IMG/VR virus record: IMGVR_UViG_2778261420_000002
Location: 1-5,170 of that record
DNA from: a virus
Taxonomy: Duplodnaviria; Heunggongvirae; Uroviricota; Caudoviricetes
Direction: 5' to 3' (one strand)
Length of the DNA stretch: 5,170 nt
The stretch's first letter is position 1; each line of letters opens with the position of its first letter. Below, piece after piece: positions 1 to 5,015 of this stretch. Under the pieces are notes generated by a model that was not told the DNA's origin, did no database searches, and was given only the letters and a program-made list of their open reading frames with translations. The position numbers and the translations under genes were made by a program.

Positions 1-91
1 TAAGTATTCTGCGCAATTTCCCCGACGGTCGCCGGTTCGGTGACGCTTAATTCATTAAACACCACTCTGGCGGTTTCGGTCATATCCTGCT
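1..91 (-). CDS. Partial hypothetical protein, N-terminal ~30 codons (MLKQQDMTETARVVFNELSVTEPATVGEIAQNT...); first ORF downstream of the Q/terminator module, runs off the window edge
   Basis: ATG at 91..89 on the minus strand, preceded by a purine-rich stretch (aaaagggaaaaaggc); frame stays open to position 1. Lies about 130 nt downstream of the minus-strand terminator at 222..250. Does not look like a holin (no hydrophobic segment in the visible part). Confidence 0.35.
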
Positions 92-221
92 GTTTTAGCA
101 TGCCTTTTTCCCTTTTCCGGTTAACGTGACATACCAATACCTCTTGTCGAAAAAGCCAGCAAGCTGAAAGACCGGCATTCGCAACCACCAGCGCATTTAA
201 CGTCCTGTACCGCTTTTCGGG

Positions 222-250
222 CACAAAAAAACCCGCATAAAGCGGGTTCT
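222..250 (-). terminator. Rho-independent terminator downstream of Q (tR'-like)
   Basis: On the minus strand: 7-bp GC-rich stem AACCCGC/GCGGGTT (plus 230..236 and 242..248) with a 5-nt loop, followed by a run of 7 T (complement of plus A225..A231). On the plus strand the downstream tract is only TTCTTT, so it is oriented for minus-strand transcripts. Confidence 0.7.
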
Positions 251-300
251 TTCAGGTGTCCATGTCTGCTATTCGCCTCGCGGTATAGCTTTGCGAAGCG

Positions 301-336
301 TAGCTGGATTGAAACAGTTTATGCGTAAAAAATCAA
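301..336 (-). promoter_or_regulatory. Candidate sigma70 late promoter (pR'-like) immediately after Q
   Basis: Minus strand reads TTGATT (complement of 331..336, overlapping the Q stop codon), a 17-nt spacer, then TTCAAT (complement of 308..313). Predicted start near 300, giving a leader of about 75 nt that ends at the 222..250 terminator, the same layout as lambdoid pR'/tR'. Hexamers match consensus only 4/6 each. Confidence 0.3.
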
Positions 337-887
337 GACATTTTTTGAGCAAACGATTCTCGCATAGGGATGTATAGCGCATATTCAGCAACAGCCAACC
401 AATTAGCAATTCGCTTTTCGCATGTACTAAAACACCATTCCGGGTGAACCTCATTCAACAATTCAGCCATTTTGCGTTTACTCATCCCCCGCCCTTCGTA
501 CCTTTGCCGCAGGATATCAATCAATCCAGGATAACGTGCAAGCGCTTTACTTATCACCCCATCAATGCGTAACGCCTCTGCATCAGTACAGTGAGACAAC
601 CAGCTCTTCTGTCTGCCAGCGATCATCTCTCGCAAGAATGCTTCCAGCTCTGGTTTATCAATCCCTGACTCCCTGATTCTACGCAGGGCTTCATTGATTG
701 CGGTTTTTGTCAGTTTTTTGGATGCCAGCAACTGATTGAACATATTTCCTGGTTTGCCACCACCTATATACGACCAACGCCCCCACATCCGTAATTTCCC
801 CTGGATCCAGACGGCTTCCAGCGTTTTTAGACGTAAATGCTCGCCGCTTTTGCCTGTAATTTCCGGGTATATCATATTTACGATCAC
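333..887 (-). CDS. Phage antitermination protein Q (Q21/Q82-like family)
   Basis: 184-aa ORF with an N-proximal LRMWGRW motif resembling the RWGAW motif of Q-family antiterminators. Sits immediately downstream of rusA and upstream of a promoter-plus-terminator module, the canonical lambdoid arrangement. Start is GTG at 887, overlapping the rusA stop (GTGA); an alternative ATG lies at 875. Confidence 0.75.
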   Translation of the reverse strand: MIVNMIYPEITGKSGEHLRLKTLEAVWIQGKLRMWGRWSYIGGGKPGNMFNQLLASKKLTKTAINEALRRIRESGIDKPELEAFLREMIAGRQKSWLSHCTDAEALRIDGVISKALARYPGLIDILRQRYEGRGMSKRKMAELLNEVHPEWCFSTCEKRIANWLAVAEYALYIPMRESFAQKMS

Positions 888-1249
888 TCACTCTCAATTT
901 TGTAAATCTTCACGCCCAGCCGCCCCCCAGGAACGCGCTGACCGCGCACAATATTGATTTCATCAAACTGCTCGTCGTCTATGAGAAGTCCGGCATGCGT
1001 CAGCGCATCCAGTGGTGCTTTCAGGATATTGTCCAGGTCACGACGACGTTTATCCGGTGGCTCTGCAATAATCTTTATCACCAGCCTTCCGGACAGGTTT
1101 AATTTCAGCCGCTGCTGGCGAACAATAAGCGCCACATCACGGCGATAACGCTCACCGGCTTTTGATACAAAATATGTGCTGCCACGACGTCGCCAGTAAG
1201 TGTTCACCGTTGGCGGGTAAGGCAAAACAAATTCTATGCGTTCAGTCAT
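884..1249 (-). CDS. rusA: Crossover junction endodeoxyribonuclease RusA (Holliday junction resolvase)
   Basis: 121-aa ORF (MTERIEFVLPYPPTVNTYWRRRG...DKRRRDLDNILKAPLDALTHAGLLIDDEQ...) with the RusA-family acidic motif (RRRDLDN) and the typical size. ATG at 1249 directly abuts the upstream gene's TGA stop. Confidence 0.9.
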   Translation of the reverse strand: MTERIEFVLPYPPTVNTYWRRRGSTYFVSKAGERYRRDVALIVRQQRLKLNLSGRLVIKIIAEPPDKRRRDLDNILKAPLDALTHAGLLIDDEQFDEINIVRGQRVPGGRLGVKIYKIESE

Positions 1250-2305
1250 TCATGCTTTCCACTTCAGGACACCCGAATTTCTCGCGTGCATTAAAAAACG
1301 AATCAGCAACAACAGCTGGCTGCCGTGTTTTTCTTCAAAATCTTTTACCCCGGCGTGTAGTTCGCTATGGCATTTACGGCACAGCGGAATAACAAACAAA
1401 TCATCAGCCTTTGTTCCCATCCCTCCCAGTCCATGACCAATGATGTGATGCGGATCATCTGCCTGATTGCCACACGTCATGCATTTCTGCGTTTTTACCC
1501 AGCGCGTGTATACAGGCATCTCTTCCCGTCGTGGTTTCTGGCGCTGGAGATACTGAGCCGGTGACTCCGGATCAACGGCAATGCTGACCACCGTCTTTTC
1601 CTGTGGCGGGTTTTGCTGGTGGGCGTGAGGCAGTAGCGCAATATTTTTTGTGCGCTGCTTCAGCATGCTGGTGGAGGTCTGCTCTCCCGGCACGATGTCG
1701 CTTTCGCGGTATACTGAGCGGATTTTTTCCGCGCGTAATCCCAGCGAACGACGTAATACCGTCTCCGGTAGTGCGTCCGCTACGTTATTTATGGTTGCCC
1801 ACCAGGATAATTCAGCCAGCGATAATTCCCGCTCCTGCGTGCCATTCATTGCGTGGCGGATGACATCAATCATCCATGCTGACAGGTTTTGGTGAGCAAG
1901 CTGCCCGAGTGATTCGGAAGTCTGGTCACGCAGCTGGTTGTCGCAGTGCCAGCACAACACCATTGCACCGGTACCGTAACGATGTATGACGGTTTCGCTG
2001 TGATGGTAGTCACCATGAGGCCACTGGCAGGATTTAATGTGGCGTAACAGCCAGTCAGACAGTGCACCAGCACCACCAGCAGCACGAATCACCCGCTCAT
2101 CGCTGAAAAATGGCAGTAATGATTTATCCTCCGCCAATGGCTGGCGAACGGCAGGAACGACTCCGGACGGCAGACCGCGCATGCTTTTCGGTTCCGGCTC
2201 CACCAGTACACGACCGCTGCGGAATACCTGCATGGATTCACGACCAGGCTTAAGGACCACCAGCCCAAGTTCCGGTACCGGAACAGATCGAAGTAATACC
2301 CGCAC
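1250..2305 (-). CDS. Phage protein with C-terminal HNH-like nuclease motif (resembles DUF968 / YdfU-like prophage proteins)
   Basis: 351-aa ORF. The C-terminus CMTCGNQADDPHHIIGHGLGGMGTKADDLFVIPLCRKCHSELH fits the HNH pattern (CxxC...HH...GG...CxxCH..H). GTG start at 2305 is preceded by GGAGG with a 4-nt spacer. Stop abuts the rusA start. The roughly 260-aa N-terminal part has no motif I recognise. Confidence 0.75.
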   Translation of the reverse strand: MRVLLRSVPVPELGLVVLKPGRESMQVFRSGRVLVEPEPKSMRGLPSGVVPAVRQPLAEDKSLLPFFSDERVIRAAGGAGALSDWLLRHIKSCQWPHGDYHHSETVIHRYGTGAMVLCWHCDNQLRDQTSESLGQLAHQNLSAWMIDVIRHAMNGTQERELSLAELSWWATINNVADALPETVLRRSLGLRAEKIRSVYRESDIVPGEQTSTSMLKQRTKNIALLPHAHQQNPPQEKTVVSIAVDPESPAQYLQRQKPRREEMPVYTRWVKTQKCMTCGNQADDPHHIIGHGLGGMGTKADDLFVIPLCRKCHSELHAGVKDFEEKHGSQLLLLIRFLMHARNSGVLKWKA

Positions 2306-2631: not shown

Positions 2632-2661
2632 AATATTGTCTCTGATTTCTGTTGTCGTCAA
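2632..2661 (-). promoter_or_regulatory. Candidate minus-strand promoter for the 90aa-HNH-rusA-Q operon, divergent from the TA promoter
   Basis: Minus strand: TTGACG (complement of 2656..2661, 5/6 to consensus -35), an 18-nt spacer, then AATATT (2632..2637). Would restart transcription downstream of the 3315..3394 terminators. The -10 is weak. Confidence 0.25.
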
Positions 2662-2679
2662 CAGGCAACGTGCTATCAT
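2649..2679 (+). promoter_or_regulatory. Candidate promoter/operator of the parDE-like operon
   Basis: Plus strand: TTGTCG (2652..2657), 16-nt spacer, TGcTATCAT (extended -10, hexamer at 2674..2679). A perfect 6-4-6 palindrome CTGTTG-tcgt-CAACAG (2649..2664) overlaps the -35, as expected for an autoregulatory operator of an RHH antitoxin. SD GAGG at 2705..2708 precedes the ATG at 2715. Confidence 0.4.
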
Positions 2680-2714
2680 CGAATAGTGTTCTATCCTACT
2701 CCTTGAGGTTTACC

Positions 2715-2972
2715 ATGCGTACAACCCAACAATTCAGCATTACATTAACTAACGAGATGGCTGACATGGTGCGCGCCCGTGTGGCTTCCGGTGCCTATGC
2801 TTCAGAAAGCGAGGTCATTCGTGAAGGGCTTCGCGCACTGAATGAGCGCGATAAAGCAATCGAAGCGTGGTTAACGCATTCAGCCGCCCCCTCCCTGGAT
2901 TCAATCCGCAAAAACCCGAACAACGGACGCTCCATTTCACAGGTTCGCGCTGCGATTCGATCCGGGAAGTAA
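2715..2972 (+). CDS. parD: Type II antitoxin, ParD-like ribbon-helix-helix (CopG/Arc/MetJ fold) protein
   Basis: 85-aa product MRTTQQFSITLTNEMADMVRARVASGAYASESEVIREGLRALNERDKAIEAWL... shows the N-terminal beta-strand plus two helices typical of ParD/RHH antitoxins. SD GAGG lies 6 nt upstream. Stop is 5 nt before the toxin ATG. The ORF-track start at 2652 is a TTG and was rejected. Confidence 0.85.
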   Translation: MRTTQQFSITLTNEMADMVRARVASGAYASESEVIREGLRALNERDKAIEAWLTHSAAPSLDSIRKNPNNGRSISQVRAAIRSGK

Positions 2973-2977
2973 TCTGC

Positions 2978-3277
2978 ATGACATATGAAGTCATCATTAC
3001 TCCTGAGGCCGAACAGCAGATAATCAACCTGCACAGATACATAACGGAGAAAGCAGGAAGCGTCATTGCTGACAATTATGCCAATGCGCTTCTTGATTAT
3101 CTTGATGGGTTTTCTACATTCCCGCATCGGGGCAATAAACGCGATGATATTCGCCAGGGGATGCGGGTAACTCATTTCCGCCACAGAACGATTATTGCTT
3201 TTGCCGTTGATGGCAGAAAAGTCTTTATTGTCGGTATCTATCATGGTGGGCAAAGTTATGAAACCGATTTCTTATAA
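2978..3277 (+). CDS. parE: Type II toxin, ParE/RelE superfamily
   Basis: 99-aa product MTYEVIITPEAEQQIINLHRYITEKAGSVIADNYANALLDYLDGFSTFPHRGNKRDDIRQGMRVTHFRHRTIIAFAVDGRKVFIVGIYHGGQSYETDFL matches ParE-family size and pattern (ITPEAE...Y, F.V....V.I..I.H). Immediately follows the antitoxin gene and is followed by a terminator. Confidence 0.85.
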   Translation: MTYEVIITPEAEQQIINLHRYITEKAGSVIADNYANALLDYLDGFSTFPHRGNKRDDIRQGMRVTHFRHRTIIAFAVDGRKVFIVGIYHGGQSYETDFL

Positions 3278-3745: not shown

Positions 3746-3864
3746 TTCGCCTCCTGCGGCGGTTCTGGTAGCGGCATCCAGTGTGATGGAATCCACGACG
3801 CACCAGGAATTATCCAACCATCATTAGCATCAGGATGTCCCGGTATGTAAGTCGCCCACTTCAT
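3742..3864 (-). pseudogene. Out-of-frame C-terminal remnant of the DUF551 domain (…WATYIPGHPDANDGWIIPGASWIPSHWMPLPEPPQEAK)
   Basis: Translating the minus strand in the frame offset by one from the 3861..4469 ORF gives a 40-codon stretch ending SHWMPLPEPP, the characteristic C-terminal motif of DUF551 proteins. It ends in a TGA that overlaps the ATG of the next gene. Together with the WISCSERMPDSKTAVLV start of the domain in the upstream frame, this indicates a frameshift in an ancestral single gene. Confidence 0.5.
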
Positions 3865-4469
3865 TCGCAGTCACCTTTCCCGTCAAACTCCCTGGCAACA
3901 AGAACAGCTGTTTTGCTATCCGGCATTCGCTCACTACAGCTTATCCAATCATCCGGAGTTGCCGGGGAGCTGGTTGACGAATTCTTATTTTTCCGAAAGT
4001 TTCCGGCCTGAAACATAGCGGCGCGGTGACACCAGATAATCCAGCCAATCGCCATATCCCATGCCATGTATTCACTACCGCCATTTTTTACCCTGCGGCG
4101 ATCTACAGAATCCCCGAAATGCTTCTCCATAAATAACTCATAGGCAGCCCGTTCATCCGGCACCACCAGCATTGGCGGCGTGGCGTATAGCTTACGGGTC
4201 TGAACACCTGCCTCCTGGCATTTCTCTTCCTCAACAAATCTTTCGAAAGCATATTCCCCGCAATCTTCCCATTCTCCCCATTCATCATATTCTGCATCCC
4301 ACTGGCGATACTGATATGCCACTGGCTCTGCTTCCAGCGATGCCAATACAATTTTGAATAACTCGCCCTCTACTCGCGCCATCCCTGAATTGGGGTGGCA
4401 TTTCGTAATCGCTATTTTTAATTTGGCTTCTTCGATTAATTGTTCTTTTGTTAATTCAGTCATTTTCAT
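3861..4469 (-). CDS. Phage protein with C-terminal DUF551-like domain, apparently truncated by a frameshift
   Basis: 202-aa ORF; ATG at 4469 (MKMTELTKEQ...). The C-terminal WISCSERMPDSKTAVLVAREFDGKGDCE matches the start of a DUF551 domain but stops early; the rest of the domain is in another frame (3742..3864). The N-terminal roughly 160 aa is acidic and Trp-rich. Confidence 0.65.
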   Translation of the reverse strand: MKMTELTKEQLIEEAKLKIAITKCHPNSGMARVEGELFKIVLASLEAEPVAYQYRQWDAEYDEWGEWEDCGEYAFERFVEEEKCQEAGVQTRKLYATPPMLVVPDERAAYELFMEKHFGDSVDRRRVKNGGSEYMAWDMAIGWIIWCHRAAMFQAGNFRKNKNSSTSSPATPDDWISCSERMPDSKTAVLVAREFDGKGDCE

Positions 4470-4559: not shown

Positions 4560-5015
4560 TTATTCAGTTTTTATTCCTGCTCTCAAAACAGCCTCTGCCA
4601 TTCTGATATCCGGATTTTCTGAAATCATCTTTTCCGGCGAGTCGCAATCACCACCACATTCAGTTATGCGTTCATGACCAAAACGAATTGTGGTTTTGTG
4701 CGCATTAATCATTTGTGTAAGCGCGTCTGTCAATTCTGCAATGCGTTTGTCTTTAACTTCCAGCTCTTTCAGTAAAGCCAGTACGTCAGGATCGCTAACA
4801 TCAACGACGGTTACGCGCGATTTCAGGTAATGTTCATCCGCAAAAGTTCGACCAGTTTTAAAATATCCATCATCCCCCTCACATGTGCAGGCATACACAA
4901 TATGCGTTCTGGGAAATATGCGCTGTATCGACATTTCATCGCCACAAACAGGACATTCCGGCACCTGAATTGGTGAATAACGTTCACGTAATGCCTGGTA
5001 ATTAGTCTTGCACAC
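4560..5015 (-). CDS. Hypothetical phage protein with N-terminal zinc-ribbon-like Cys motif and central coiled-coil-like segment (possibly Ead/Ea22-like)
   Basis: 151-aa ORF. CPVCG...CTC Cys cluster near the N-terminus, heptad-like LALLKELEVKDKRIAELTDALTQMI, C-terminal ECGGDCD. GTG start at 5015 is preceded by GGAGA with a 6-nt spacer and overlaps the upstream ORF by 14 nt. First in-frame ATG is at codon 28, which would remove half the Cys motif. Confidence 0.65.
   Translation of the reverse strand: MCKTNYQALRERYSPIQVPECPVCGDEMSIQRIFPRTHIVYACTCEGDDGYFKTGRTFADEHYLKSRVTVVDVSDPDVLALLKELEVKDKRIAELTDALTQMINAHKTTIRFGHERITECGGDCDSPEKMISENPDIRMAEAVLRAGIKTE

Follow-up and report, generated by a model that had tools for sequence, protein, structure and literature searches.

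A probable phage 21-type Q switch served by a divergent Q21 relative of the DUF1133 family in a lambdoid Escherichia coli prophage

How are the late genes of a lambdoid prophage controlled when the gene preceding them encodes a protein that NCBI labels only "DUF1133 family protein"? The question is raised by positions 222-336 (minus strand) of a viral DNA stretch of 5,170 nt (IMG/VR record IMGVR_UViG_2778261420_000002), hereafter the window, to whose full length all coordinates refer. The window is part of a lambdoid E. coli prophage, with positions 1-900 showing 100% identity to NZ_CM129038 and 99.9% identity to the enterotoxigenic E. coli (ETEC) strain H10407. An earlier reading of the bare sequence (the original prediction) had described a Q-family antiterminator gene, a promoter overlapping its stop codon, a leader of about 75 nt and a strong intrinsic terminator. 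These features and the core Q-switch interpretation are borne out by the analysis reported here; the pause element that it proposed and its "unidentified" first late gene are not. With a probability of roughly 80%, the 222-336 region is the late-gene control cassette of this prophage, regulated by a divergent relative of the phage 21 antiterminator, Q21. The cassette is an uncharacterised new addition to the phage 21 type of Q switch rather than a new kind of system. Its elements are as follows.

333-875, minus strand: Q-like antiterminator gene (180 aa, DUF1133, divergent Q21-family member); ATG 875-873, stop codon TGA 335-333
Residues S150-T-C-E153-K154-R-I-A-N-W159 of the 180-aa Q-like protein: predicted recognition helix
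331-336, minus strand: -35 hexamer TTGATT of the pR' analogue, read directly; overlaps the Q stop codon TGA (333-335)
322-328, minus strand: heptamer TTACGCA in the promoter spacer, candidate Q-binding element (QBE) from covariation; starts 26 nt upstream of TANGCT
308-316, minus strand: TG-extended -10 element TGTTTCAAT, read directly; hexamer TTCAAT at 308-313, 17-nt spacer from the -35
301, minus strand: predicted transcription start A, from spacing, 7 nt past the -10
297-302, minus strand: TACGCT, a -10-like hexamer at about -1 to +5; candidate sigma-dependent pause element (SDPE) from the TANGCT register and the phage 21 position
287-299, minus strand: initially transcribed block GCTTCGCAAAGCT (family consensus GCTTCGCGAAGCT, one mismatch in the window); overlaps TACGCT by 3 nt
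274-300, minus strand: predicted 5' leader hairpin, CGCUUCGC paired with GCGAGGCG, 8 bp (RNAfold)
225-253, minus strand: intrinsic terminator (tR' analogue) GAAAGAACCCGC-TTTAT-GCGGGTTTTTTT, with an A-tract upstream (RNAfold)

The product of the 333-875 gene matches DUF1133 (PF06576) with E=5.9e-103, residues 1-175 aligning to positions 1-175 of the 176-position Pfam profile. It also passes, marginally, the cut-off of PF06530 (Phage_antitermQ, the Q21/Q933W family), scoring 28.4 bits against 26 over residues 69-140, and nearly all relatives carry PF06530 in precomputed Pfam. A Pfam-A scan at E<=0.01 returned these two families only, with no match to lambda Q (PF03589) or to the Q82 family, which we take to be PF06323. 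PHROGs labels the protein Q-like. When a profile built from 12 diverse DUF1133 proteins was searched against the sequences of solved structures, phage 21 Q was the best match (6p18_P, 6jnx_P) with E=1.2e-8 in two stretches, the next match lying at 0.059; the corresponding single-sequence search gave an insignificant Q21 match (E=7.9). Q21 and pR'21 are represented by PDB entries 6P18, 6P19, 6P1A, 6JNX and 6JNY. The two stretches cover the N-terminal W..G.L..WG.W motif and the S-K ... T-C-x-x-R helix-turn-helix. An hhalign comparison of DUF1133 with the phiP27 Q-like protein gave 85.6% probability. Q21 ranked first in both fold searches, all top 10 Foldseek matches being Q21 chains, and the DUF1133 model shows the Q21 fold of a sigma region 4-like core with N-terminal helices. 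At about 17% identity to Q21, DUF1133 is, on these sequence comparisons, a divergent branch of the Q21 family, and the Q-family assignment made earlier holds. The gene order annotated in H10407, with DUF968 and RusA before this gene and holins, endolysin and terminase after it, places it in the gene Q slot of lambdoid phages. The Q families published are three, Q21/933W, Q-lambda and Q82, and do not include DUF1133 (bioRxiv 10.1101/651190); that preprint gives Q82 as PF06530, apparently erroneously. Literature searches for DUF1133 and PF06576 returned no papers.

The late promoter begins within the Q gene, TTGATT (336-331) lying over the TGA at 335-333 with a 17-nt spacer to the -10, as had been claimed; where the C-terminus of the DUF1133 protein is longer, the promoter falls within the final part of the gene. 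On the window's sequence alone this promoter is not convincing, and the matter is settled by comparison with relatives. The -35 equivalent is TTGACT or TTGACA in the Providencia, Xenorhabdus, Serratia and Edwardsiella loci, and orthologous -10 hexamers (TATAGT, TAGTAT, TAAATT) are near consensus. A generic consensus scan picks up TTGACT-16-TATAGT (10/12), followed by the terminator, in the Providencia phage L007 and TTGACT-16-TAGTAT in Xenorhabdus L060; in the window it reported neither promoter nor terminator. Two alternative -10 hexamers of the window, TAAACT (321-316) and TACGCT, were rejected, no correctly spaced -35 being visible by eye.

The comparison drew on five loci from phages and 61 from genomes of Enterobacterales, which range from Escherichia to Proteus, Xenorhabdus and Edwardsiella, with Q identity falling to 34%. 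A cassette counted as full when a -10-like hexamer was followed 4-8 nt later by a hexamer of the TANGCT type and then by an intrinsic terminator. Such a cassette follows 49 of the 56 full-length DUF1133 genome copies and four of the five phage copies, and is present in the window. The distance from TANGCT to the end of the terminator is 63-112 nt (median 73, 54 loci). The 131-nt cassette occurs in 1804 of 5426 complete E. coli genomes, O157:H7 included. Because they are conserved in relatives, the features are more than chance, and the pR'/leader/tR' layout after the Q gene that the original prediction had recognised is a family-wide one.

Within this layout, the promoter spacer holds the candidate site of the protein. 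In phage 21 the QBE is a direct repeat of TGAGCA between the -35 and -10 elements, contacted by A124, R127 and R128 of helix H6 (PMC6606751). The window protein aligns E153-K154 with the base-contacting R127-R128 of Q21 and keeps the preceding T-C motif, and the 'RR' subgroup of DUF1133 retains both Q21-type arginines. Across the 55 loci tabulated, the spacer heptamer covaries with Q residues 153-154 without exception.

Residues EK: TTACGCA or a one-base variant, 5 loci
Residues ES, ET or EN: TTGCGCG, 16 loci
Residues QD or QN: TT[GA]CCGA, 9 loci
Residues RN: TTAGCCA or TTATCCA, 3 loci
Residues RR: TGAGC[AC]A and close variants, 20 loci
Residues QR: TGACATT, one locus

All 21 loci with arginine at position 154 have G at heptamer position 2, and all 34 with another residue there have T. 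The RR-type heptamer contains the TGAGCA subsite of phage 21 itself, and the 26 nt from heptamer to TANGCT equal the distance from phage 21 subsite 1 to TAAGCT. At least three swaps within a common scaffold were found: the window versus E. coli locus L073, Xenorhabdus L051/52 versus L057/60-62, and the Klebsiella versus the Enterobacter group. The L073 protein is 89% identical to that of the window and has the helix TCRNR; its spacer differs only in the heptamer, which reads TTAGCCA for TTACGCA. Beyond the spacer, L073 has TTGTAT instead of TTGATT as its -35, one further leader substitution and about 80 nt inserted past the stop codon. Covariation and homology thus suggest that 328-322 is the Q-binding element of the window, a candidate assignment.

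A phage-21-type late promoter for comparison was recovered from viral contigs with the published binding-site oligonucleotide and reads TTGACA-TCAT-TGAGCA-AA-TGAGCA-ACACT-ATTCGCA-TAAGCT-GCCGTT, followed by a terminator. The element order is the same as in the window, namely -35, Q site in the spacer, -10, a -10-like TANGCT after the start and a nearby terminator; the leader is about 46 nt in the phage 21 type versus about 77 nt here. In phage 21 the C:G pair of one TGAGCA subsite is at -21 and that of the other at -13, and the arrested bubble runs from +3 to +15 (PMC6606751). From these published positions TAAGCT falls at +2 to +7, a numbering derived here rather than stated in that paper. A register anchored on TANGCT accommodated 53 unique DUF1133 cassettes, all of which have this hexamer (TATCCT in two); it lies 5-7 nt past the -10 in the sequences checked by hand. 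The TACGCT of the window retains T1, A2 and T6, the most important positions of a -10-like element for sigma region 2. As a candidate assignment from position and sequence, TACGCT at 302-297 would correspond to the phage 21 pause element TAAGCT. A natural variant is seen in phage Rac-SA53 (L005:3037-3200), which is of the EK type: TTTACGCA is kept in its spacer, the pause element is TAAGAT and the terminator is weak. The first transcribed bases of this phage, TAAGATGCCGTT, resemble those of phage 21, TAAGCTGCCGTT, and genes for a pertussis-like toxin lie downstream.

The original prediction had assigned the pause to another hexamer of the leader, TATACC at 287-282, as the sigma-dependent element required for Q loading. 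This hexamer matches TATAAT at four of six positions and is located in the leader, and the pause element of phage 82 does lie further downstream than that of lambda. TATACC, however, has no T at position 6, and its position-2 A, which a -10-like element cannot do without, is replaced by G in the closest relatives (TGTATC); others read TGTACA or TGCGCC. It would sit at about +15 to +20, within a predicted hairpin loop and at a greater distance from the QBE than the phage 21 element; TACGCT, by contrast, retains the phage 21 spacing to the QBE. The hexamer is not conserved, TACGCT fits the phage 21 position instead, and the earlier assignment is probably wrong; the chance that TATACC serves as the pause element is put very low.

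From the predicted start at 301 to position 225 the leader measures 77 nt, in agreement with the 75 nt or so first estimated; the weak Rfam isrK alignment opens close to that start, at 299. Its terminator, in RNA form GAAAGAACCCGC-UUUAU-GCGGGUUUUUUU, has the core CCCGC-UUUAU-GCGGG at 232-246 and a U7 tract at 225-231. RNAfold gives the 80 nt from 301 to 222 a folding energy of -31.1 kcal/mol, compared with -17.1 +/- 2.7 for 200 shuffled sequences (z = -5.1), the fold consisting of a 5' hairpin (300-293 with 281-274) and the terminator. Probably the scan missed the terminator because its stem can extend into the U-tract by pairing it with the A-tract upstream. With A- and U-tracts on its two sides the terminator (225-253) may act bidirectionally; the scan called it on the opposite strand in L060 (2138-2156) and on neither strand in the window. 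That the leader is shorter than lambda's, as the original prediction remarked, is real but not unusual, with about 46 nt in the phage 21 type and 77 nt in IsrK.

The 5' hairpin, whose 11-nt loop AAAGCUAUACC contains TATACC, is predicted in most relatives and forms from the conserved block and a downstream CGCRAGC. As a selected RNA structure it was rejected: swaps of the 3' arm between sequence classes have the same mean stability (native -8.11 versus chimera -8.14 kcal/mol), giving no evidence of covariation. Among relatives the 3' arm contains unaligned indels. The hairpin may be a by-product of conserved sequence. The block itself, GCTTCGCGAAGCT with up to three mismatches, is found in 31 loci and kept in every helix class; since it is conserved across all of them, it is not specificity-determining. 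In many relatives (L051, L060 and others) GCTTCGCGAAGCT is a perfect 12-bp palindrome, GCTTCGCGAAGC. The block is absent from the phage-21-type pR'. A DUF1133 Q might load by a variant of the Q21 route, in which the family-specific block together with the conserved 11-nt loop region (299-274) replaces the second subsite and the minor-groove loop, working either through its palindrome in the DNA or through a hairpin in the nascent RNA; we regard this as unlikely. If true, Q-dependent antitermination would have gained a cis element of a new kind. The Klebsiella/Enterobacter-type leaders (L006, L016-L018, L021-L025, L029-L035) all carry GCGAACTGAGCA about 20 nt after TANGCT, a second TGAGCA within the transcript. 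It occurs with both ES and RR helices and lies outside the recognition code.

By analogy to phage 21 and lambda (PMC6606751; 10.1101/651190), the elements read directly from the sequence suggest the following switch. Host sigma-70 RNA polymerase would initiate at the promoter overlapping the stop codon, at about A301, and sigma region 2 would re-bind the -10-like TACGCT (302-297), so that the polymerase pauses at about +12 to +17. Without Q, the polymerase would resume and end at the 253-225 terminator, leaving a leader RNA of about 77 nt. With Q, the protein would sit on the spacer heptamer TTACGCA (328-322) through its helix-turn-helix, E153 and K154 taking the positions of Q21 R127 and R128, and would load onto the paused polymerase, where it presumably narrows the RNA exit channel and blocks terminator hairpins, as shown for Q21. 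Readthrough would then reach the 65-aa gene, a methylase gene, tRNA genes and the lysis and morphogenesis genes.

Two other roles were considered for the parts of this cassette. In one, DUF1133 is an activator with a sigma region 4-like helix-turn-helix, bound at a weak late promoter, and the hairpin ends the early operon. The non-canonical -10 of the window might need such help, the candidate binding site lies within the promoter and the fold resembles sigma region 4. Near-consensus promoters of relatives (10/12 in L007) need no activator, however, and a terminator stands between promoter and late genes in 54 loci. TANGCT at about +1, which matches the phage 21 pause element, has no role in simple activation, and the homology to Q21 spans the N-terminal motif as well as the helix-turn-helix. 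An activator in place of an antiterminator is accordingly judged highly improbable. The other role concerns the leader, which might be a regulatory small RNA (sRNA) of the kind of Gifsy-1 IsrK or StxS, with targets in trans or in its own readthrough transcript, and is compatible with antitermination. In Gifsy-1 and Stx phages, short pR'-tR' RNAs have come to play such roles (PMC4825925, PMC7547250). The leader ends in a terminator hairpin and U7 tail typical of Hfq-binding sRNAs, and the cassette is as frequent in E. coli as stated above (1804/5426). A full-length Rfam match to isrK (RF01394; 226-299, 21.6 bits, E=0.17) is far under the gathering score of 50, and the Rfam scan of the leader gave no other sRNA family. 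Relatives do not conserve the unpaired middle part of the leader. Of shuffled leaders, 72% pair just as well with the downstream sequence, and the downstream region is a separate mosaic block common to phages with other Q genes. A regulatory role of the leader is therefore doubtful, though less so than the activator.

Likenesses to known systems help to place the antiterminator switch preferred here. The Gifsy-1 AntQ-IsrK-orf45-anrP segment has a -35 that overlaps or abuts the Q stop codon and a 77-nt leader with 5' hairpin and terminator, followed by a small ORF and a regulatory-looking gene. It differs in that AntQ is of the unrelated Q82 type and in the leader-downstream pairing, which was not seen here. 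Homology to IsrK was rejected in view of the weak Rfam match and the Q82-type Gifsy-1 Q with its unrelated leader, and IsrK is retained as an analogy; an IsrK-like pairing of the leader with the region of a downstream 33-aa ORF and its ribosome-binding site was likewise dropped, being no better than that of shuffled leaders. StxS is similar in being a short RNA that starts at a late promoter under antitermination control and ends at a terminator (PMC7547250). Downstream, H10407 has the gene order of phiP27, the part within the window being 90-94% identical to phiP27 and Stx2 phages. The pR'-tR' distance of Stx phages is 258 nt, their Q alleles are others, and no stx genes are present here. Lambda shares the constitutive late promoter by the Q gene, the Q site between -35 and -10, the -10-like pause element and the short terminated leader (PMC6606751; PMC7547250). 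Lambda Q (PF03589) gives no sequence match to the DUF1133 protein. The lambda leader is 194 nt, and lambda requires an extra -35-like element.

Several points weigh against a Q switch at this locus. The window promoter, which the scan missed, matches consensus at 8/12 positions, and its -10 at 4/6, with T at position 2 in place of the canonical A. Of the two directly repeated QBE subsites that Q21 needs, only one can be recognised here; by eye no repeated subsite is visible 8 bp downstream, the window reading AAACTG. No block of the region is more conserved than TANGCT (1.63 bits per position), but the alignment was anchored on TANGCT itself, so this information content is partly circular. Relative to Q21, the protein carries some 40 extra residues following the N-terminal motif. 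It lacks the long minor-groove loop L3 of Q21 (R113; a 13-residue insertion between the helices of the helix-turn-helix), in place of which DUF1133 has the short turn HPEWC. The AlphaFold model is of low confidence (pLDDT 61.7, below 50 at the N-terminus), because a search with the Edwardsiella homologue to deepen the alignment returned only 4 proteins. The literature searched held no transcript, start site, pause or antitermination data for any DUF1133 protein. Finally, a hybrid junction in which an IsrK-type leader follows a DUF1133 protein with a swapped C-terminus is present at full length in 129 of 5426 complete E. coli genomes, and that leader belongs to an unrelated Q82-type protein in Gifsy-1. 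The hybrids (L012:1930-2160, L013 and L014) are three species representatives and are not in the window. They encode 184-aa DUF1133 proteins with the last ~35 residues replaced and the helix TCCSRVDVW; downstream lie a genuine promoter and leader of the IsrK type, in a region about 80% identical to Gifsy-1 isrK-orf45-anrP.

The cassette is bounded by genes of the prophage on one side and by cargo on the other.

4560-5015, minus strand: Ead/Ea22-like gene
3861-4469, minus strand: DUF551 gene
1250-2305, minus strand: DUF968/HNH gene
884-1249, minus strand: RusA gene
1-101, minus strand: 5' part of the first gene after the terminator, 33 codons (MLKQQDMTETARVVFNELSVTEPATVGEIAQNT...); ATG 101-99, cut by the window edge

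A ParD-like antitoxin and ParE-like toxin pair also lies on the plus strand at 2652-3277, within the nin region of the prophage, where H10407 has hokD. The first gene after the terminator had been read as an ORF at 1..91 that did not look like a holin and might be a moron gene. Its start is in fact the ATG at 101-99 and it runs off the window, the complete ORF encoding a conserved 65-aa protein (WP_000917767.1 in the H10407 annotation). It is indeed no holin and occupies the cargo slot, so that the moron reading is reasonable, but it is a common gene and can be named: it belongs to PHROG 331 (E=1.4e-37), a function-unknown family, and is homologous to phiP27 L23. A match to TrmB/winged-helix (18 bits) is below the cut-off. 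A 33-aa ORF at 95-196 has no PHROG match, is unannotated in H10407 and was treated as spurious. Downstream of the 65-aa gene, H10407 has genes for a DNA methyltransferase, tRNA-Ile, tRNA-Arg, two holins, endolysin and terminase. With the methylase and the tRNA genes the 65-aa gene makes up a cargo module shared with Stx phages; in phiP27 these genes are annotated in the same order and stx2e follows them.

The joint between switch and cargo is the intrinsic terminator itself (222-253), the Q/leader DNA upstream and the 65-aa gene DNA downstream having different relatives. Q gene, leader and terminator form one mosaic block, with window positions 858..223 showing 82% identity in phage 666R9. Positions 236..1, comprising the 3' half of the terminator and the start of the 65-aa gene, are 90-94% identical to phiP27 and Stx2 phages, which carry other Q genes. 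At the same joint phiP27 (L003:3480-3520) has its own terminator, after an inserted GIY-YIG nuclease gene. Three records of the sample, from a Candidatus Nanosynbacter metagenome-assembled genome (L015), a Vagococcus sp. (L027) and E. coli DH5alpha at 4.83 Mb (L070), contain enterobacterial DUF1133 prophage sequence and are probably contamination or mislabelled assemblies.

What the window by itself offers is an ordinary late-gene switch. Its interest lies in the DUF1133 branch, for which base-level candidate assignments of promoter, Q-binding site and pause element are gained, and whose cassette is found in roughly a third of the complete E. coli genomes (O157:H7 and ETEC H10407 among them) and across Enterobacterales. 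Q alleles set the expression strength of late-operon cargo such as Shiga toxins and LT-II. The "recognition code" that relates residues 153-154 to the spacer heptamer could predict which Q acts on which prophage in strains with multiple prophages.

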